A stretch of 64,000 bases of DNA, from assembly GCA_963750165.1 (NCBI GenBank), contig CAVVPN010000001.1:352001-416000 (forward strand), in the 5' to 3' direction. The DNA comes from an uncultured Gemmataceae bacterium. GTDB taxonomy: Bacteria > Planctomycetota > Planctomycetia > Gemmatales > Gemmataceae. Below the pieces are notes generated by a model. It worked only from the letters and a program-made list of their open reading frames with translations, did not search any database and had not been told where the DNA came from. Below, in pieces: positions 41,661 to 53,660 of this stretch (positions are counted from its first letter, which is position 1; each line of letters begins with the position of its first letter). The position numbers and the translations under genes are program-made.

Positions 41661-41710
41661 TGAGCCCGCAGCGCCAGCGCGGGATGTCCCGCACTGGCGC
41701 TGCGGGCTCA
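41661..41710. repeat. REP-like palindrome (CCCG-AGCGCCAGCGCGGG family; also 44079-44138 and 6241)
   Basis: tgagcccgcagcgccagcgcggga..tcccgcactggcgctgcgggctca. Confidence 0.75.
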
Positions 41711-44077: not shown

Positions 44078-44150
44078 GTCGGAGCCCGAGCGCCAGCGCG
44101 GGGCAAACTTGGCCCCGCGCTGGCGCTCGGGCTCGGACACGGCAGCGCCG

Positions 44151-45602: not shown

Positions 45603-45789
45603 GGATTCTCACCGTCCGGAAGCAGCCCGCAGAAACCATTCGCCAACACCCTTGTCCCATTTTACCTAACCAGGGCGCCGTGCCAAGCGAAACTCTGCGC
45701 TGCGCCGACAGGTGAGTGACGCCGCTTACCCCCGAGCGGGTCCTGGCCGGGCGCGGCGGCGCGGCATACAACCGCGGTGTTGAGGGAAA

Positions 45790-46037
45790 CGGTGTCAGGG
45801 AGAACTAGCTTGGTGCTCTGCACCGTGGGCGATGTTGCGTCGCCCGAGCGGTTTGTTTGCGATTCGTCTCAGGGAAGGCTGTTTCAGGCTCGCCGTGGCC
45901 GTCGGGTTCGACTCGGGCGACGTCGGCCTGGGACAACCCCGCGGCCCGTGGTTCCGACATCGCCCGAGTCGAACCCGACGGCCGCGAGCCCGTGAGCCTT
46001 CCGTGACCCAAGCGGAGAAGTAGGTCTCCCGACACCG
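45790..46037 (+). ncRNA. Retron-type msr-msd ncRNA, unit 1 (Mx162/Sa163-like)
   Basis: Terminal IR 45790-807 / 46021-37, predicted branch G45808, two msr hairpins (45812-24, 45827-45), long msd hairpin with a 30-bp stem 45897-926 / 45954-83. Confidence 0.8.
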
Positions 46038-46310
46038 CAGCGCGGACGGCCCGCGGCGGAGAACTAGCCCGGTGCCCTGCACCACGGGCGGCGTTGCGCC
46101 GCCCAGGCCGTTTGTCAATCGTTCGTCTCAGGGAAGGCTGTTTCAGGCTCGCTGTTCGGGTTACCCGATGAGGTAATTCTCATCAGCCTGGAACAACCGC
46201 GCGGCTCGCGGTTCTGATGAGAATTACCTCATCGGGTAACCCGGCGAGCCCGTGAGCCTTCCGTGACCCAGGCGGAGAAGTAGTTTGATGCCGTTGGGTC
46301 GTCCGCGCTG
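46038..46310 (+). ncRNA. Retron-type msr-msd ncRNA, unit 2
   Basis: Terminal IR 46038-66 / 46281-310, predicted branch G46067, msr hairpins (46071-83, 46086-104), perfect 30-bp msd stem 46157-86 / 46214-43; followed by T6. Confidence 0.8.
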
Positions 46311-46488
46311 TTTTTTCCACAGTCCTTCCTTGACCGCCACCCACCCCGGCCGCCCAGCAACGAGAGCCCCGTTTACATTCCGCGCGGACTCAGCGCGCGC
46401 GAAACGGAGTGCTTGTTGACCGAGGGCGCGCGGCAGGGTCATCGGGTAGAATGGCCGCAGCGGTTTTCGTTGGCACGAGGAGCGAATC

Positions 46489-46782
46489 ATGAATACGTCG
46501 GTAACTGTGCAGGGGACACTGAAGCCCGATGGGACGCTGGAGCTGGATACCCGGCCAGAACTGCCGCCGGGCCGGGTCAGGGTCGTACTGCAACCACTGC
46601 CCGCCTCAGCAACAGCGCAGGAAGACTGGTGGCAGTACCTGCAGCGCGTGCGGGCCGAACGAGAAGCCGCCGGCTACCCTTTCATGAACGAGGCCGAAAT
46701 GGCAGCACATCTTCAGTGGCTGCGGGAGGATGACGACCGCATTGAGCGCATCTACCGGGAAATGGGGCAGGAGCAGTCCTGA
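46489..46782 (+). CDS. Putative antitoxin
   Basis: GAGGAG RBS; VQGTLKPDGTLEL..LPPGRVRV; TGATG coupling to the PIN gene. Confidence 0.7.
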   Translation: MNTSVTVQGTLKPDGTLELDTRPELPPGRVRVVLQPLPASATAQEDWWQYLQRVRAEREAAGYPFMNEAEMAAHLQWLREDDDRIERIYREMGQEQS

Positions 46783-47184
46783 TGCGCGTTTACTGCGATA
46801 GCGTCATCTTGATCTACTACCTGGAAGGAACGCCGCCGTTCAAGGCCCGGGCAGCGGCCCGGTTGGCGGCCTTGTGGGCCGCCGGAGACACGGTGGCGGT
46901 CAGCGACCTGGTCCGGTTGGAGTGCCGGATGCAGCCGATCCGATTCGGAAATACTTCTGCCCTCGCCGACTACGACTTGCTATTCGCCCAGCCCAATGTC
47001 GAGTGCGTACCCATCACGACGGCCGTTTTCGACCGCGCCACGTTGATCCGGGCCGCCCTCAATTTCAAGCTTGGCCGACTCCCTCCACCTGGCGGCCGCC
47101 GTCGAGTCCGGCTGCGACCGCTTCCTGACGAACGACACGCGGCTGTCCCGATTCTCCGACATCGCGGTGGAAGTGCTGCCGTAA
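46782..47184 (+). CDS. vapC: VapC/PIN toxin (frameshift ~47071)
   Basis: YCDSVILIY..ECR, then ADSLHLAAA..FLTND in the shifted frame; stop at 47182-84. Confidence 0.8.
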
Positions 47185-47322
47185 ACAATCGGCGGCCTCT
47201 GGCCTTTCTCCTTGACCCTGCCACCCGCGGCGGTGACAATCCACCCAGCTACCGGGGTGGTTCGCGACGGGGCAATCGCCTCGGCTCCTGGTGGCCCTGT
47301 CCATCTCGAAGGAGCCCTGTCA

Positions 47323-48072
47323 ATGACCAGGACGACAGCAACCGTGCTGGCGGCGATCTTTCTGGCCGTCGTGGCGACGAGCCTGCGGGCGCAGCAGACC
47401 GACAAGGAAAAGGAACTCGCCAAACAAAAAGCGGCGGCGGACAAGGCCCGGGAAGCCGACGCCCGCGCCCAGAACTTCAGCAACCTCAAACAAATCGGCA
47501 TCGCCGTCCACGAATTCTACGACAAGCAACAGACCCTGCCGCGGCACGCCATCTACAGCAAGGACGGCAAGACGCCACTGCTCAGCTGGCGCGTGGCCCT
47601 GCTGCCCTACCTTGACGAGAAGGCGCTGTTCAAGGATTTCAAACTCGATGAGCCGTGGAACAGCCCGCACAACCGCCGGCTCATCGCCAAAATGCCGAAG
47701 GTGTATGCGCCCGTGGTTTCGGGCAAAGCCGGCGCGGGCAAAACCTTTTACCAGGTCATCACCGGCCCCGACACGCTCTTCGACGGCACCAAAAAAATGA
47801 AGCTAACGGACATCCGCGACGGCACCTCGAACACCATCCTGGCGATTGAGGGCAAGAACGCCGTCACCTGGACCGCCCCGGAGGATGTGCCGCTGCCGCG
47901 GGGCAAGGGTCGGCTGCCGGCCATCGGCGGGCAGTTCAAGGATAGCATCGCCGTCCTGTTCGGCGACGGCTCCGTCCACACCATTCGCCCTGATCCGCCG
48001 GTCGAGGTGCTGCGTGCGGTGATCTCGCCCGCGGGCGGTGAGGTGGTGGATCCGCAAAAGCTGGAGCGGTGA
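47323..48072 (+). CDS. DUF1559 domain secreted protein
   Basis: NLKQIGIAVH, LSWRVALLPY, DGTSNTI and LFGDGSV motifs. Confidence 0.88.
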   Translation: MTRTTATVLAAIFLAVVATSLRAQQTDKEKELAKQKAAADKAREADARAQNFSNLKQIGIAVHEFYDKQQTLPRHAIYSKDGKTPLLSWRVALLPYLDEKALFKDFKLDEPWNSPHNRRLIAKMPKVYAPVVSGKAGAGKTFYQVITGPDTLFDGTKKMKLTDIRDGTSNTILAIEGKNAVTWTAPEDVPLPRGKGRLPAIGGQFKDSIAVLFGDGSVHTIRPDPPVEVLRAVISPAGGEVVDPQKLER

Positions 48073-48110: not shown

Positions 48111-48399
48111 CTTCGTTCGCAGTACCGCCTTTAGAGCGAGCGGTTCACGCACGGTTTGCGCACAAGTGGCGGCGGGCACGGGCTGACCTCCAGCGGCCTG
48201 CGCTGCCACAGCAAGGGGGCCAAGGGAGCCAAGGGGGCCAACTTTTTCACACGTCGAGATTCGAGCCTGGGAGCGGCTCGCGCAGTTTGCAGGACGGCTC
48301 GGGAGCACTGGCCTGCCGTTCGTGGGCCACACAACTGCGAACCGCGCTAGGCGGAATCGGACACGCAGATTCCGCCTAAAGGCGGTACTACGAACGAAG
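48111..48399. repeat. REP palindrome interrupted by a ~215-bp MITE-like insertion
   Basis: cttcgttcgcagtaccgcctttag ... gcggaatc..gattccgcctaaaggcggtactacgaacgaag; the insert carries the repeat shared with 18193. Confidence 0.55.
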
Positions 48400-48464: not shown

Positions 48465-49580
48465 ATGACCCGACGAAAGACCGAGGCGGTGGGGGTTCTC
48501 CTGGCCGCCCTGGGGCTGGCCCTGGTGGGCCAACACGCCCTGCAGGCGCAGCAGAAGACCGACAAGGATTCCCTCGTCGGCACCTGGAAGATCGTCAAAG
48601 CCAAGGCGGCGGGCAAGGACTTGCCCGAAGAATTCACCGTGCTGTCCCGGCTGACCTTCTCCAGGGACGGCAAGCTGATTTTCACGATGCTCGACAAGAA
48701 CATGGAGAGCAAGTATGCGTGGCTCAAGGCGGGGCAGCTCGACCTGGCCCTGGGCACCGTGGACCCCAGCCCGGCCATCTACAAGTTCGATGGTGACAAT
48801 CGCCTGACCATCTGCGCCGGCCCGCCCAGGGGCACCCGACCCACGGAATACACCGCAGAGAAGGGCAGCGAACAGCTCCTGCTCGTGCTGGAACGTGCCA
48901 AGCCCGGCCAGGAAAAGCCGTCGCCCCAGGACATCGCCAAGTACAAGGACAAAATCCAGAACGCGGCGGCACGTGCGATGCACACCAACAACTTCAAGCA
49001 GATCGGCATCGCCATGCACAACTACTACGGCGTGTACAAGCACCTGCCGCTGCACGCGATCTACAGCAAGGACGGCAAGACGCCGCTGCTCAGCTGGCGC
49101 GTCGCCATCCTGCCGTTCATCGAGCAGGAAGACCTGTACAGGGAGTTCAAACTCGACGAACCGTGGGACAGCGCGCACAACAAAAAGCTCATCGCCAAGA
49201 TGCCGAAGATTTACGCGGTGCCGGGCAAGGGTAAGCCCGAGGATGGTAAGACCCATTACCAGGTCTTCACCGGCCCCGGCACCGTCTTCGATGGCAACAA
49301 GAAAAGGCAGTTCCAGGACATCACCGACGGCACCTCGAACACCATCCTGGCCATTGAGGGCAAGAACGCCGTCGTCTGGACCAAACCCGAGGACCTGACG
49401 CTGCCCAAGGACAAGAACCAGTTGCCGGCCGTGGGCGGGCTCTTCAAGGGCGGCATCGTCGTGCTGTTCTGCGACGCCTCGGTACACACGTTCCGCCCCA
49501 ACCCGCCGGCGGACCTGCTGCGCACGTTGATCACGCGCGCTGGCAATGAGGTGGTCGATCTGGAAAAGCTGGAGCAGTGA
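48465..49580 (+). CDS. TIGR03067 + DUF1559 domain protein
   Basis: LVGTWKIV..IYKFDGDNRLTIC..RPTEY plus DUF1559 motifs; paralogue of 47323. Confidence 0.85.
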   Translation: MTRRKTEAVGVLLAALGLALVGQHALQAQQKTDKDSLVGTWKIVKAKAAGKDLPEEFTVLSRLTFSRDGKLIFTMLDKNMESKYAWLKAGQLDLALGTVDPSPAIYKFDGDNRLTICAGPPRGTRPTEYTAEKGSEQLLLVLERAKPGQEKPSPQDIAKYKDKIQNAAARAMHTNNFKQIGIAMHNYYGVYKHLPLHAIYSKDGKTPLLSWRVAILPFIEQEDLYREFKLDEPWDSAHNKKLIAKMPKIYAVPGKGKPEDGKTHYQVFTGPGTVFDGNKKRQFQDITDGTSNTILAIEGKNAVVWTKPEDLTLPKDKNQLPAVGGLFKGGIVVLFCDASVHTFRPNPPADLLRTLITRAGNEVVDLEKLEQ

Positions 49581-52087: not shown

Positions 52088-52225
52088 GGCGCAGACTCCC
52101 GAAGACCGGACGGGACAGCCAAGGCCCCCAGCCTATCCGCGGCCGACGGCGGATGCAAGGCGCCCGGGCGACACTCCAGGGCCAGCACCCCGCAGCGGGT
52201 GTGCCGCTACATTTTGGCATTTTCA

Positions 52226-52293
52226 GGCGAGCGGCGCGGCGTCAGCCCGCCGGTGACACACAGCACCGGCGGGCTGACGCCGCGCCGCTCGCC
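52226..52293. repeat. REP-like palindrome (second copy 55972-56047)
   Basis: ggcgagcggcgcggcgtcagcccgccggtg...caccggcgggctgacgccgcgccgctcgcc. Confidence 0.8.
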
Positions 52294-52485
52294 AAAATCC
52301 AGCGGCACACCCCCCCGCAGCTTCTTCTCTTGCGTCCATCCCGAGGGACGGTATAAGCGGCAGACGTCGCACTGCTTCCCGGTGCGGCCCGGGGTGAGGA
52401 CGGCGGCGCGCCAGGGCGGCTGGATTGCCGGCCAGGCGGTGACCGATGAGTAAGACAGGTTTCGTTGCGTTTCGGGAGGACGGAC

Positions 52486-53592
52486 ATGCGTTCTCTGCTA
52501 GTGCTTGCTGCTCTGCTGCTCTGCTTTGTCCTGACCCCGCTGCCGGCCACCCACGCGCAAACGCCGCCCGCGCCGCCGACGCCCGAGGCGCAGGTGCTGA
52601 CCGTCGTGGCGGGCGAAACGATGGTACGCAGTGGCCCGACGGACACTTATTATGCCACCGCGAAGCTCCGTTTTGGCGACACGGTGGCGGTGCTGGGTCC
52701 GGCCAAGGAGGATCCCAACTGGTTGAGGATTCGCCCGCCGCTGGGGTCGTTCAGCTGGATCAACGAGCGCTTCGTGGCGGAGATCGGCAAAAGTGCGACC
52801 TTCCCCAAGTCCGGCGTGGTGCTGTGTGCGGACGACAACGCAGAAGTGCCCGTGTTGGCCGGCAGCACGGAAGTCAACCAGGAGCCCAGTAATATCGCGG
52901 CCAAGGTCAAGCGTGGGACGCAGGTGACCATCATCGGCAGTTCACGGCTGACGGACAAGGGTCCGCTGGTGCCGATCTACCCGACCACCCTGGAGGTGCG
53001 CTACATTCGGGCGAGCGATGCGCGCAAGGTGGAATTCCCGACCGCGGCCCCGGACCCGAAGGCGAAGGAAGCGCAGGACAAGATCACCCAGGCCGAGCAG
53101 CACGTCCGCGACGCCCGCAAGCACCTGGAAGACGCCTTCAACGCCACCACGGACCCGGCACAGCGGCAGGACATCAAACAGAAACTGGCCCTGCTGCCGG
53201 TGGTGCCCCCGGCCGCGAACGCCCCGGTCGCGGCCCCGGCAAGCCCGACTCAGGCCGGCTCGATCTATCACACGACCGCACAGGTTGGCGGCACGAACCC
53301 GGTGCTGAACGCCAACCTGACCGCGGCCGTCAAGCCTGCCGCGGCGGAGTGGAGCAAGTGGGGCTACCTGCGCAAGGCGAGCCTCCAGATGGGCGGCCAG
53401 CAGTTATACGTGTTGACCACGCAACAGGGCGACGCCCTGGAGTACGCCGTGGCGGCGGACCCGAGCAAGACCCTGGAGTATCACGTCGGCAACGGTCAGG
53501 TCACCCTGTACGGGACCGCCACCTACCGCAGCGAGGTGGTCCGCGGCCTGCTGGTCCGCACCGTGACGCACGTCGGCATTCCACCCAAGTAG
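52486..53592 (+). CDS. Secreted SH3-like domain protein
   Basis: GGAGG RBS, signal peptide, VRSGP..YYAT.KL..WLRIRPP.GSFSWI. Confidence 0.75.
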   Translation: MRSLLVLAALLLCFVLTPLPATHAQTPPAPPTPEAQVLTVVAGETMVRSGPTDTYYATAKLRFGDTVAVLGPAKEDPNWLRIRPPLGSFSWINERFVAEIGKSATFPKSGVVLCADDNAEVPVLAGSTEVNQEPSNIAAKVKRGTQVTIIGSSRLTDKGPLVPIYPTTLEVRYIRASDARKVEFPTAAPDPKAKEAQDKITQAEQHVRDARKHLEDAFNATTDPAQRQDIKQKLALLPVVPPAANAPVAAPASPTQAGSIYHTTAQVGGTNPVLNANLTAAVKPAAAEWSKWGYLRKASLQMGGQQLYVLTTQQGDALEYAVAADPSKTLEYHVGNGQVTLYGTATYRSEVVRGLLVRTVTHVGIPPK

Positions 53593-53660
53593 TCAATAGT
53601 TCAAAGAGTTGGAGCGCCGGGCGATTATCGCCCGGCGCTCCAACTCTTTGAACTATTGAC
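53592..53660. repeat. Perfect 34-bp palindrome between convergent genes
   Basis: gtcaatagttcaaagagttggagcgccgggcgat-t-atcgcccggcgctccaactctttgaactattgac. Confidence 0.8.

Follow-up and report, generated by a model that had tools for sequence, protein, structure and literature searches.

Within a window of 64,000 nucleotides from an uncultured Gemmataceae bacterium (the whole stretch of DNA that was analysed) lie two head-to-tail msr-msd units, at about 45790-46037 and 46038-46310, in which a retron scaffold is held constant and the long central stems are unrelated. The genome (9.6 Mb, 12 contigs) has seven such units with seven unrelated stems, each unit with its own a1/a2 repeats, and in related genomes a single cognate reverse transcriptase (RT) is accompanied by up to 32 dispersed units. 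Such a pattern hints at a single bacterial defence enzyme that presents a whole range of DNA baits. The fuller reading, in which a type XIII retron with its protein genes on another contig would have the window units as satellite msr-msd genes, and in which its msDNAs would act as baits, is about evenly poised between being right and being wrong. The usual picture of a retron is one of a single ncRNA, a single RT and a single effector, with the msDNA as a single fixed sensor; one RT served by dispersed and rapidly exchanged templates would represent a nucleic-acid route to the diversification of innate sensing.

What is it that identifies these units as retron templates? Both fold into a structure with paired a1/a2 repeats, a branching G, msr hairpins and a long msd stem-loop, the ncRNA of a retron being defined as one to three msr hairpins plus one long msd stem-loop (accessible text of PMC7736814). 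In unit 1, on the forward strand, the a1 inverted repeat (45790-45807) pairs with a2 (46021-46037) and is followed immediately by the predicted branching G at 45808, which lies in a TAGC context, the commonest context for this residue in retrons (accessible text of PMC6868368). The folded msr stem-loops SL1 (45812-45824) and SL2 (45827-45845), which share in a family-wide G-U bias, are followed by a conserved 5' basal msd stem (45869-45893) that is near-invariant among units, by the variable hairpin (45897-45983), in which the arms of the 30-bp stem (45897-45926 and 45954-45983) enclose a conserved apical loop of 27 nt, and by a conserved 3' basal msd stem (45984-46006) placed by comparison and folding. 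The predicted msDNA of this unit, on the reverse strand at 45859-46020, would be of about 160 nt, with its 3' end set by analogy to Mx162, for which a 241-nt transcript and a 162-nt msd are given in the available part of PMC6868368, and it is predicted to fold as a single long DNA hairpin (z -8.1).

Unit 2 repeats this arrangement on the same strand, with a1 at 46038-46066, the predicted branching G at 46067 again within TAGC, SL1 at 46071-46083, SL2 at 46086-46104, a near-invariant 5' basal msd stem at 46128-46152, the variable hairpin at 46157-46243 (30-bp stem with arms 46157-46186 and 46214-46243 and a conserved 27-nt apical loop), the conserved 3' basal msd stem at 46244-46266 and a2 at 46281-46310, after which a run of six T, ending at 46316, may act as a terminator. 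Since a1 of unit 2 abuts a2 of unit 1 the two units are probably co-transcribed. A candidate -10 box for the two-unit transcript, TACAAC, is found at 45767-45772 on the forward strand; the hexamer recurs 35-45 nt 5' of the branching G in five of the six unit starts compared, and a sigma-70 scan did not pick up the box at this position. Against 200 shuffles the folds have z-scores of -8.9 (unit 1) and -13.1 (unit 2), and the span from the branching G to a2 is 212 and 213 nt, compared with 208-213 nt in relatives. Across the family the position of the branching G hardly varies (174 of 181 units), and a paired, unit-specific a1/a2 is present in 113 distinct cases. An Rfam search with the window units returned miRNA-like hairpin matches alone, none of them at the gathering score. 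A likeness of the stems to a hammerhead or a tRNA T-arm, an idea formed by eye, was rejected as it is not common to other units.

The first-pass annotation had described two stems of exactly 30 bp, at the same position, unrelated in sequence and capped by a conserved 27-nt loop, and the coordinates above bear this out: by a count made by eye the stems are alike at 8 of 30 positions, and the frames that flank them show 82% identity over 98 nt and 98% over 40 nt. Pairing is complete in unit 2 (30/30) and interrupted once in unit 1 (29/30), where the mispair at stem position 25 is, as had been reported, C-A in the RNA and G-T on the other strand. The nearest other stem to that of unit 1 is alike at 19 of 25 positions (in genome G012), and to that of unit 2 at merely 13 of 25. 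The expectation of a fixed length also stands, with the correction that the norm of the family is 29 rather than 30 bp. Thus, 202 of 227 distinct units have paired arms of 28 bp (4 units), 29 bp (187) or 30 bp (11, of which six belong to this genome); left out of the 227 are 24 units with one-base bulges, collapsed hairpins, non-matching arms or other loops, together with one spurious row, and the 202 include several Nannocystis-type units that pair over only 25 bp and have a longer loop. When the query is made without the loop the core measures 86-90 nt in 197 of 209 units, and exactly 88 nt in 171, and a detectable 3' motif is absent from 9 of 218. Within each of five genomes the mean identity between units is 0.26-0.31 for the stem, against 0.73-0.86 for the scaffold and 0.71-0.79 for the loop, and stem positions 4-26 hold almost no positional information.

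Several units depart from this plan. A divergent class, found at one orthologous locus in three genomes, has the usual msr and basal scaffold, but its stem is short and its large loop, which is itself conserved, is of another kind. Five degenerate units have a short palindrome without a loop, or a tandem repeat of 8-9 nt, in place of the hairpin. In another five the two arms fail to match, and in one of these the 3' arm is that of the stem at the orthologous locus in another genome; units with non-matching arms are either assembly chimeras formed via the conserved loop or intermediates of a swap.

The mispair in unit 1 relates to the question of which strand is selected. Among 243 distinct arm pairs in 200 clusters, with arms of more than two interior mismatches left out, the interior mismatches of the stems, read on the RNA strand, are C-A in 26 cases and G-T in 6 (p=0.0005), with 13 of other types, whereas the a1/a2, SL1 and SL2 helices have 86 G-U and 23 C-A; this is a switch of wobble between the stems and the msr plus a1/a2 (Fisher p=9e-10). 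Base composition was rejected as its cause, because each Watson-Crick pair has one transition route per type, and the RNA-side stems of the identical units go the opposite way. On these counts the variable hairpin is selected, or mutates, as cDNA, with strand-biased mutation as a possible source of the bias, such that what had been proposed from a single mismatch extends to the family as a whole.

Where, then, is the enzyme that would copy the window units? There is no RT in the region around them and no RT match on their contig, the RT matches of the genome being on other contigs. Apart from the two units in the window, one unit is found on contig C3, one on C9 and three on C11, and the C11 trio heads a type XIII retron operon, 12.9 kb upstream of its RT. 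PADLOC and domain profiles place in this operon a HEAT-ARM_XIII protein of 1050 aa with a BRCT domain, a second HEAT-ARM_XIII protein of 2134 aa with WD40, a SWIM_XIII protein of 647 aa with WGR and, by PADLOC, an RT_XIII of 460 aa (E=3.5e-164), which is the partner set of type XIII. The hallmark motifs of retron RTs are NAXXH, YADD and VTG, and the C11 enzyme has NATRH at 226, YADD at 334 and ITG at 386. As the window units have the msr-msd structure and are not contiguous with an RT gene, they are best called satellite templates; the retron scaffold claimed for them at first reading is upheld both by their full msr-msd anatomy and by the type XIII operon elsewhere in the genome. Domain profiles revealed no catalytic toxin domain in the proteins of the operon, and for two of these proteins the ESM Atlas provided leads only (hypothetical, BRCT, HEAT and SWIM).

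The operon and its surroundings have some further features. A Y1 (IS200-like) transposase-like ORF with an internal tandem repeat lies between the two HEAT genes (C11:2305463-2306299), and the final 40 or so residues of the 1050-aa HEAT/BRCT ORF (C11:2306520-2309672) look out of frame, the profile match stopping at residue 1013. Another type XIII RT operon is present at C3:793781-799450, where the gene immediately 5' of the RT is membrane-protein-like. No unit of this family was found near it, and this RT was rejected as the main partner, with units in 2 of the 34 genomes that have only that RT type. At C11:1628536-1628958 an RT in an 858-aa frame scores as RT_UG37.

The association of units with the cognate RT is seen across the family. 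Among 250 family genomes both are found in 51, the unit only in 5, the RT only in 10 and neither in 184, with cut-offs (unit E<=1e-7, cognate RT E<1e-110) that were set after the lists had been viewed and with kin that are not independent. In each of the 23 genomes tabulated the RT has a unit on its own strand, 11-18 kb upstream. Within 30 genomes, picked mostly for having BLAST hits, a loop-free pattern gives 0-32 matches and its reversed control 0-4, and after a hairpin filter 218 units are retained in 14 genomes, with a maximum of 32 in one. A scan of named records (at least 123 stretches, 80 of them with titles) has, among the records listed, true units in Gemmata, Fimbriiglobus, Frigoriglobus, Nannocystis, Bradymonadales, Thiothrix and Desulfobacterales. 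A strict three-part pattern, of a kind that can miss units, had 0 matches in 400 genomes from the other families of the phylum. A metagenome scan with a 16-nt motif gave 2 true units among the 118 stretches listed, and viral contigs gave one among the 120 loci listed (115 + 5). One complete unit within a contig of a viral collection is probably host DNA beside a prophage, since its stem is also present in a cellular record.

One of the central questions is how the stems come to differ when the frame does not. This can be approached through pairs of orthologous loci, taken as loci in different genomes with homology of at least 400 nt in both flanks and a mean flank identity of at least 85%. There are 23 such pairs, some of which share a locus and so are not independent, and ten more were skipped because one unit is degenerate. 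The stems are alike at 24-25 of 25 positions in 12 pairs and at 5-18 of 25 in the other 11 (15 or fewer in ten of them), where random stem pairs peak at 8-9 of 25. In the swapped pairs a1, SL1, SL2, a2 and the flanks are kept (0.88-0.96), and it is the stem and the loop that differ. For instance, G182 and G206, both of them nearly complete genomes, differ in this way in the unit that heads the operon, with flanks that are 89-90% identical and a stem that is alike at 8 of 25 positions. Stems that are kept are 0.99 identical where the flanks are 0.86, which suggests a constraint on their sequence. A common stem is also found at loci with unrelated flanks, in 22 pairs of which 16 are independent, and 7 of these 16 lie within one genome. 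The tract shared by such pairs starts some 30 nt ahead of the basal anchor and stops about 10 nt before a2; outside it identity is at background level (0.85 vs 0.85 in SL1/SL2 and 0.56 vs 0.55 in outer a2), with edges that are weakly marked (3' linker p=0.02, 3' link p=0.05, a1 p=0.04). The tract is without the msr hairpins and coincides with the predicted span of the msDNA. The bimodal identity at orthologous loci, together with the sharing of the msd span alone at unrelated loci, argues that stems are exchanged as cassettes, which accords with the hypervariable and exchangeable stems of the first-pass annotation. The pattern named there as contrary to this, of identical or gradually diverging stems of variable length, is mostly not seen, but gradual change is also present, with several stem families that differ at 1-7 positions. 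Modules of 10-12 nt are common to stems above the level of shuffles, a count inflated by palindromic words. By these comparisons, stems circulate, recombine and mutate within the family.

The shared tract fits conversion templated by msDNA. Ordinary gene conversion that starts in the conserved basal blocks is also possible, and chimeras in draft assemblies can be a source of apparent exchange. A bolder proposition is that of a self-editing library, whereby one type XIII RT would make tens of different msDNA baits, each a duplex of fixed length with non-self palindromes that have been selected, and the msDNA would recombine into sister loci and rewrite their stems. The evidence cited for such rewriting is the restriction of the shared tract to the msd, and the idea is tentative and leans towards the doubtful; if true it would amount to natural retron recombineering, in which the specificity of sensing is reshuffled and the proteins are left untouched. 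At the loci of three genomes (G206, G239 and G182) many unit pairs have one common flank only, which suggests rearrangement at the units or misassembly.

What do the stems contain? The three dyads that had been picked out in the window stems (CGGGT-T-ACCCG, GATGAG-N6-CTCATC and GTCG-N4-CGAC) are present, and dyads exceed chance across the family. Counting dyads with arms of at least 4 bp, the 164 cluster representatives have 2.07 per stem, where dinucleotide shuffles have 1.36 (z=9.7) and 25-mers from genomic DNA 0.64; there is an excess of spacers of 0-5 nt, and the dyad centres are scattered along the stem. Certain words recur at many positions (GAATTC 12, ACCGGT 24, TGCGCA 15 and GGTNACC 19), in counts that are not independent because stems share ancestry and modules. 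GAATTC, ACCGGT and GGTNACC are above a random fold-back null in all 200 runs at each of 3 settings, and TGCGCA is likewise above every run of the fold-back simulation. When six-base palindromes are ranked by their avoidance in the host DNA that flanks the units, the 16 most avoided are found 18 times in stems against 37 expected, a scarcity to be expected of any unmethylated msDNA regardless of its function, whereas the other 48 occur 231 times against 120 expected (rho 0.43). Interrupted sites known in REBASE (via Biopython) are enriched 1.59-fold and other such sites 1.15-fold (permutation p=0.015), a signal that rests on about four words, with 14 of the 31 known interrupted sites at or below expectation. 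How strongly a 6-bp palindrome is enriched shows no significant correlation with how many REBASE enzymes there are for it (rho 0.13, p=0.32), and the orphan-methylase words are not enriched in stems (GATC 19 vs 16.1, GANTC 11 vs 13.9). In the genome as a whole the avoidance of GTCGAC is extreme (observed/expected 0.01), and it is strong for GTGCAC, GAGCTC, ACGCGT and TTCGAA.

The palindromes that crowd the duplex are ones not avoided in the host genome, which is why the duplex can be viewed as a bait for incoming enzymes. In the mechanism proposed, each unit would have a promoter of its own, and the single RT would copy the transcript in trans to give an msDNA of about 160 nt. A complex of the RT with the HEAT and SWIM/WGR proteins would hold the conserved base and the apical loop, such that the free duplex of about 29 bp between them would form a display of fixed length; WGR and BRCT domains often bind DNA breaks. 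The palindromes would attract palindrome-recognising enzymes, namely phage or plasmid DNA methyltransferases, restriction-type nucleases and possibly dimeric repressors, and methylation, cutting or binding of the duplex would lead to release of the effector. Renewal of the library would take place through duplication of units and gene conversion of msd segments between them, possibly with msDNA as the donor. The analogy is with Ec86 and Sen2, where methylation of the msDNA stem by Dcm and Dam, respectively, triggers the effector (available text of 10.1101/2023.08.16.553469 and 10.64898/2026.10.13.758329; also PMC8632793). Drawn from this analogy and from the comparison of units, a library of msDNA baits against foreign methyltransferases or nucleases is a reading with roughly equal chances of standing and of falling.

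Could the length of the duplex be all that matters? The strict length, the near absence of positional information at positions 4-26 and the spread of dyad centres along the stem would suit a duplex of about 29 bp that serves as a ruler for sequence-independent phage proteins (nucleases, helicases, SSB), with a stem sequence that is free to vary and dyads that arise as a by-product of template switching in hairpins. Such a sensor is nevertheless unlikely, given that certain words recur far above the fold-back null and that kept stems (0.99 vs 0.86 in the flanks) point to a constraint on sequence, and it leaves the retention of up to 32 different copies unexplained. The units might, alternatively, be non-autonomous SINE-like repeats, dispersed by the action of the retron RT and reshuffled through gene conversion, from which the host gains nothing. 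This idea draws on the variable number and dispersal of the copies, on the existence of degenerate and collapsed ones and on a similar reading of the Nannocystis msr/msd repeats without a nearby RT (accessible text of PMC6868368), but it is unlikely when 197 of 209 units found without the loop keep the 86-90 nt core, the arms remain paired with a wobble bias of the cDNA strand, each copy retains its own paired a1/a2 and units are rarely found without the RT.

A regulatory sponge, in which operator-like stems titrate nucleoid proteins or dimeric transcription factors that belong to the host itself, would make use of the operator-like dyads with enriched 0-5 nt spacers and agree with the largely vertical inheritance of type XIII (PMC7736814, in the part available). 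It is distinctly unlikely, in that for none of the seven stems is there a match elsewhere in this genome that exceeds those of shuffles, and the same-locus swaps of stems between close relatives would be unexpected if host regulators are fixed. At least four N6/N4 methyltransferase matches are present in the genome, which also strongly avoids several palindromes, as might befit a guard of the host's own restriction-modification whose stems carry host sites and report a loss of methylation, but the depletion of host-avoided palindromes in stems (18 vs 37 expected) and the presence of just one of the 15 most avoided 6-mers in the seven stems of this genome make a guard very improbable. The likeness to CRISPR spacers that had been drawn at first reading holds for modularity (a constant frame, a fixed-length unique insert, wholesale replacement and about 200 stem clusters in 243 arm pairs), but an origin in captured invader pieces is highly improbable, as the viral contigs searched contain no exact 20-mer from either of the window stems, the best BLAST E-values of these two among phage records, where the phages of these hosts are probably poorly sampled, are 0.2 and 0.6, stems have three times the dyads of genomic DNA, and identical stems recur at unrelated loci and in other genomes, sister units exchanging their stems instead. 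No Cas1-Cas2 integrase was seen beside the units in the window region or the C11 operon.

The bait library can be set against what is known of other systems. Type XIII corresponds to the clade 10 retrons with SWIM and HEAT/ARM partners, which include Mxa1/Mx162, Sau1/Sa163, Nex2/Ne144 and Mxa2/Mx65, and the available text of PMC7736814 reports no tested defence function for them. The system described here resembles these in its RT_XIII with an N-terminal extension, its SWIM and HEAT/ARM partners and the size and layout of its ncRNA. Unlike type XIII as described in the accessible accounts, with one RT-contiguous ncRNA, it has seven units (up to 32 in relatives) that are mostly far from the RT, with a different stem of fixed length in each unit that serves the one cognate RT. 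Planctomycetota are listed with type XIII in PMC13712802, and the words 'tandem', 'array' and 'orphan' are absent from the main text of that paper in its available form. Retron-Nex1 (Ne160) of Nannocystis exedens likewise has repeated msr/msd without a nearby RT (via the accessible part of PMC6868368), and related units were found here in Nannocystis records too; the Nannocystis repeats, compared through the description in PMC6868368, have been read as possible retrotransposition, and that description mentions neither a fixed-length hypervariable stem nor an exchange of cassettes. In Ec86 (Eco1) and Sen2 the msDNA stem is a methylation-sensing substrate, as is proposed here, but there is one msDNA with other effectors in place of a variable library, as far as the available accounts go. 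CRISPR arrays also hold fixed-length variable inserts that turn over between strains within a constant frame, whereas the inserts here are inverted-repeat pairs, mostly dispersed, common to sister loci and without an invader match found.

The closest working analogue is the UG27 array. According to the accessible text of 10.64898/2026.09.22.753630, the UG27 RT is likewise served by many ncRNA units, conserved in structure and diverse in sequence, that yield different cDNA hairpins, for which no phage or host complementarity was found and the function is described as unknown. In the same text UG27 is a class 2 UG RT carried by prophages, whose arrays are tandem and whose cDNA hairpins are bulged and of varied length, whereas here there is a chromosomal retron RT with mostly dispersed units and near-perfect stems of fixed length that contain nested palindromes. 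The linked RT scores best as RT_XIII, with its best 25 families all of retron type, and a prophage location is not apparent, with one true unit among the 120 viral-contig loci listed. No account of a dispersed, fixed-length, exchanged library of retron stems was found in a literature search for which subscription journals and supplements were mostly outside the scope, and the available text of PMC7159879 has nothing on such unit libraries. Thus, the operon proteins are those of a known type XIII retron and the 1997 Nannocystis repeats form a partial precedent, while no description was found of a dispersed template library with exchanged fixed-length stems and one RT, which appears to be new. 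Two old questions become testable with it, namely the role of myxobacterial-type (type XIII) msDNA and the natural recombination of msDNA into the chromosome. The roughly 200 natural stems also map those parts of the scaffold that tolerate any cargo and show precisely what length is permitted, information of use in retron engineering.

Next to the two units the window has a divergent gene for a Ser/Thr kinase and a PIN-domain pair. The latter, just downstream of the units at 46489-47185, consists of a small ORF and a PIN-domain ORF (PF01850, E=2e-6) in a VapBC-like arrangement, where the PIN frame continues to 47615, with an apparent frameshift near 47070-47090. Between genes the window also has several long inverted repeats (41661-41710, 44078-44138, 48111-48399, 52197-52312 and 53592-53660), of which two are alike; they are presumably akin to REP-type elements. 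Paralogous genes for secreted proteins at 47212-48072 and 48465-49580, which are taken here to resemble the DUF1559 family, are 76% identical across about 570 nt.
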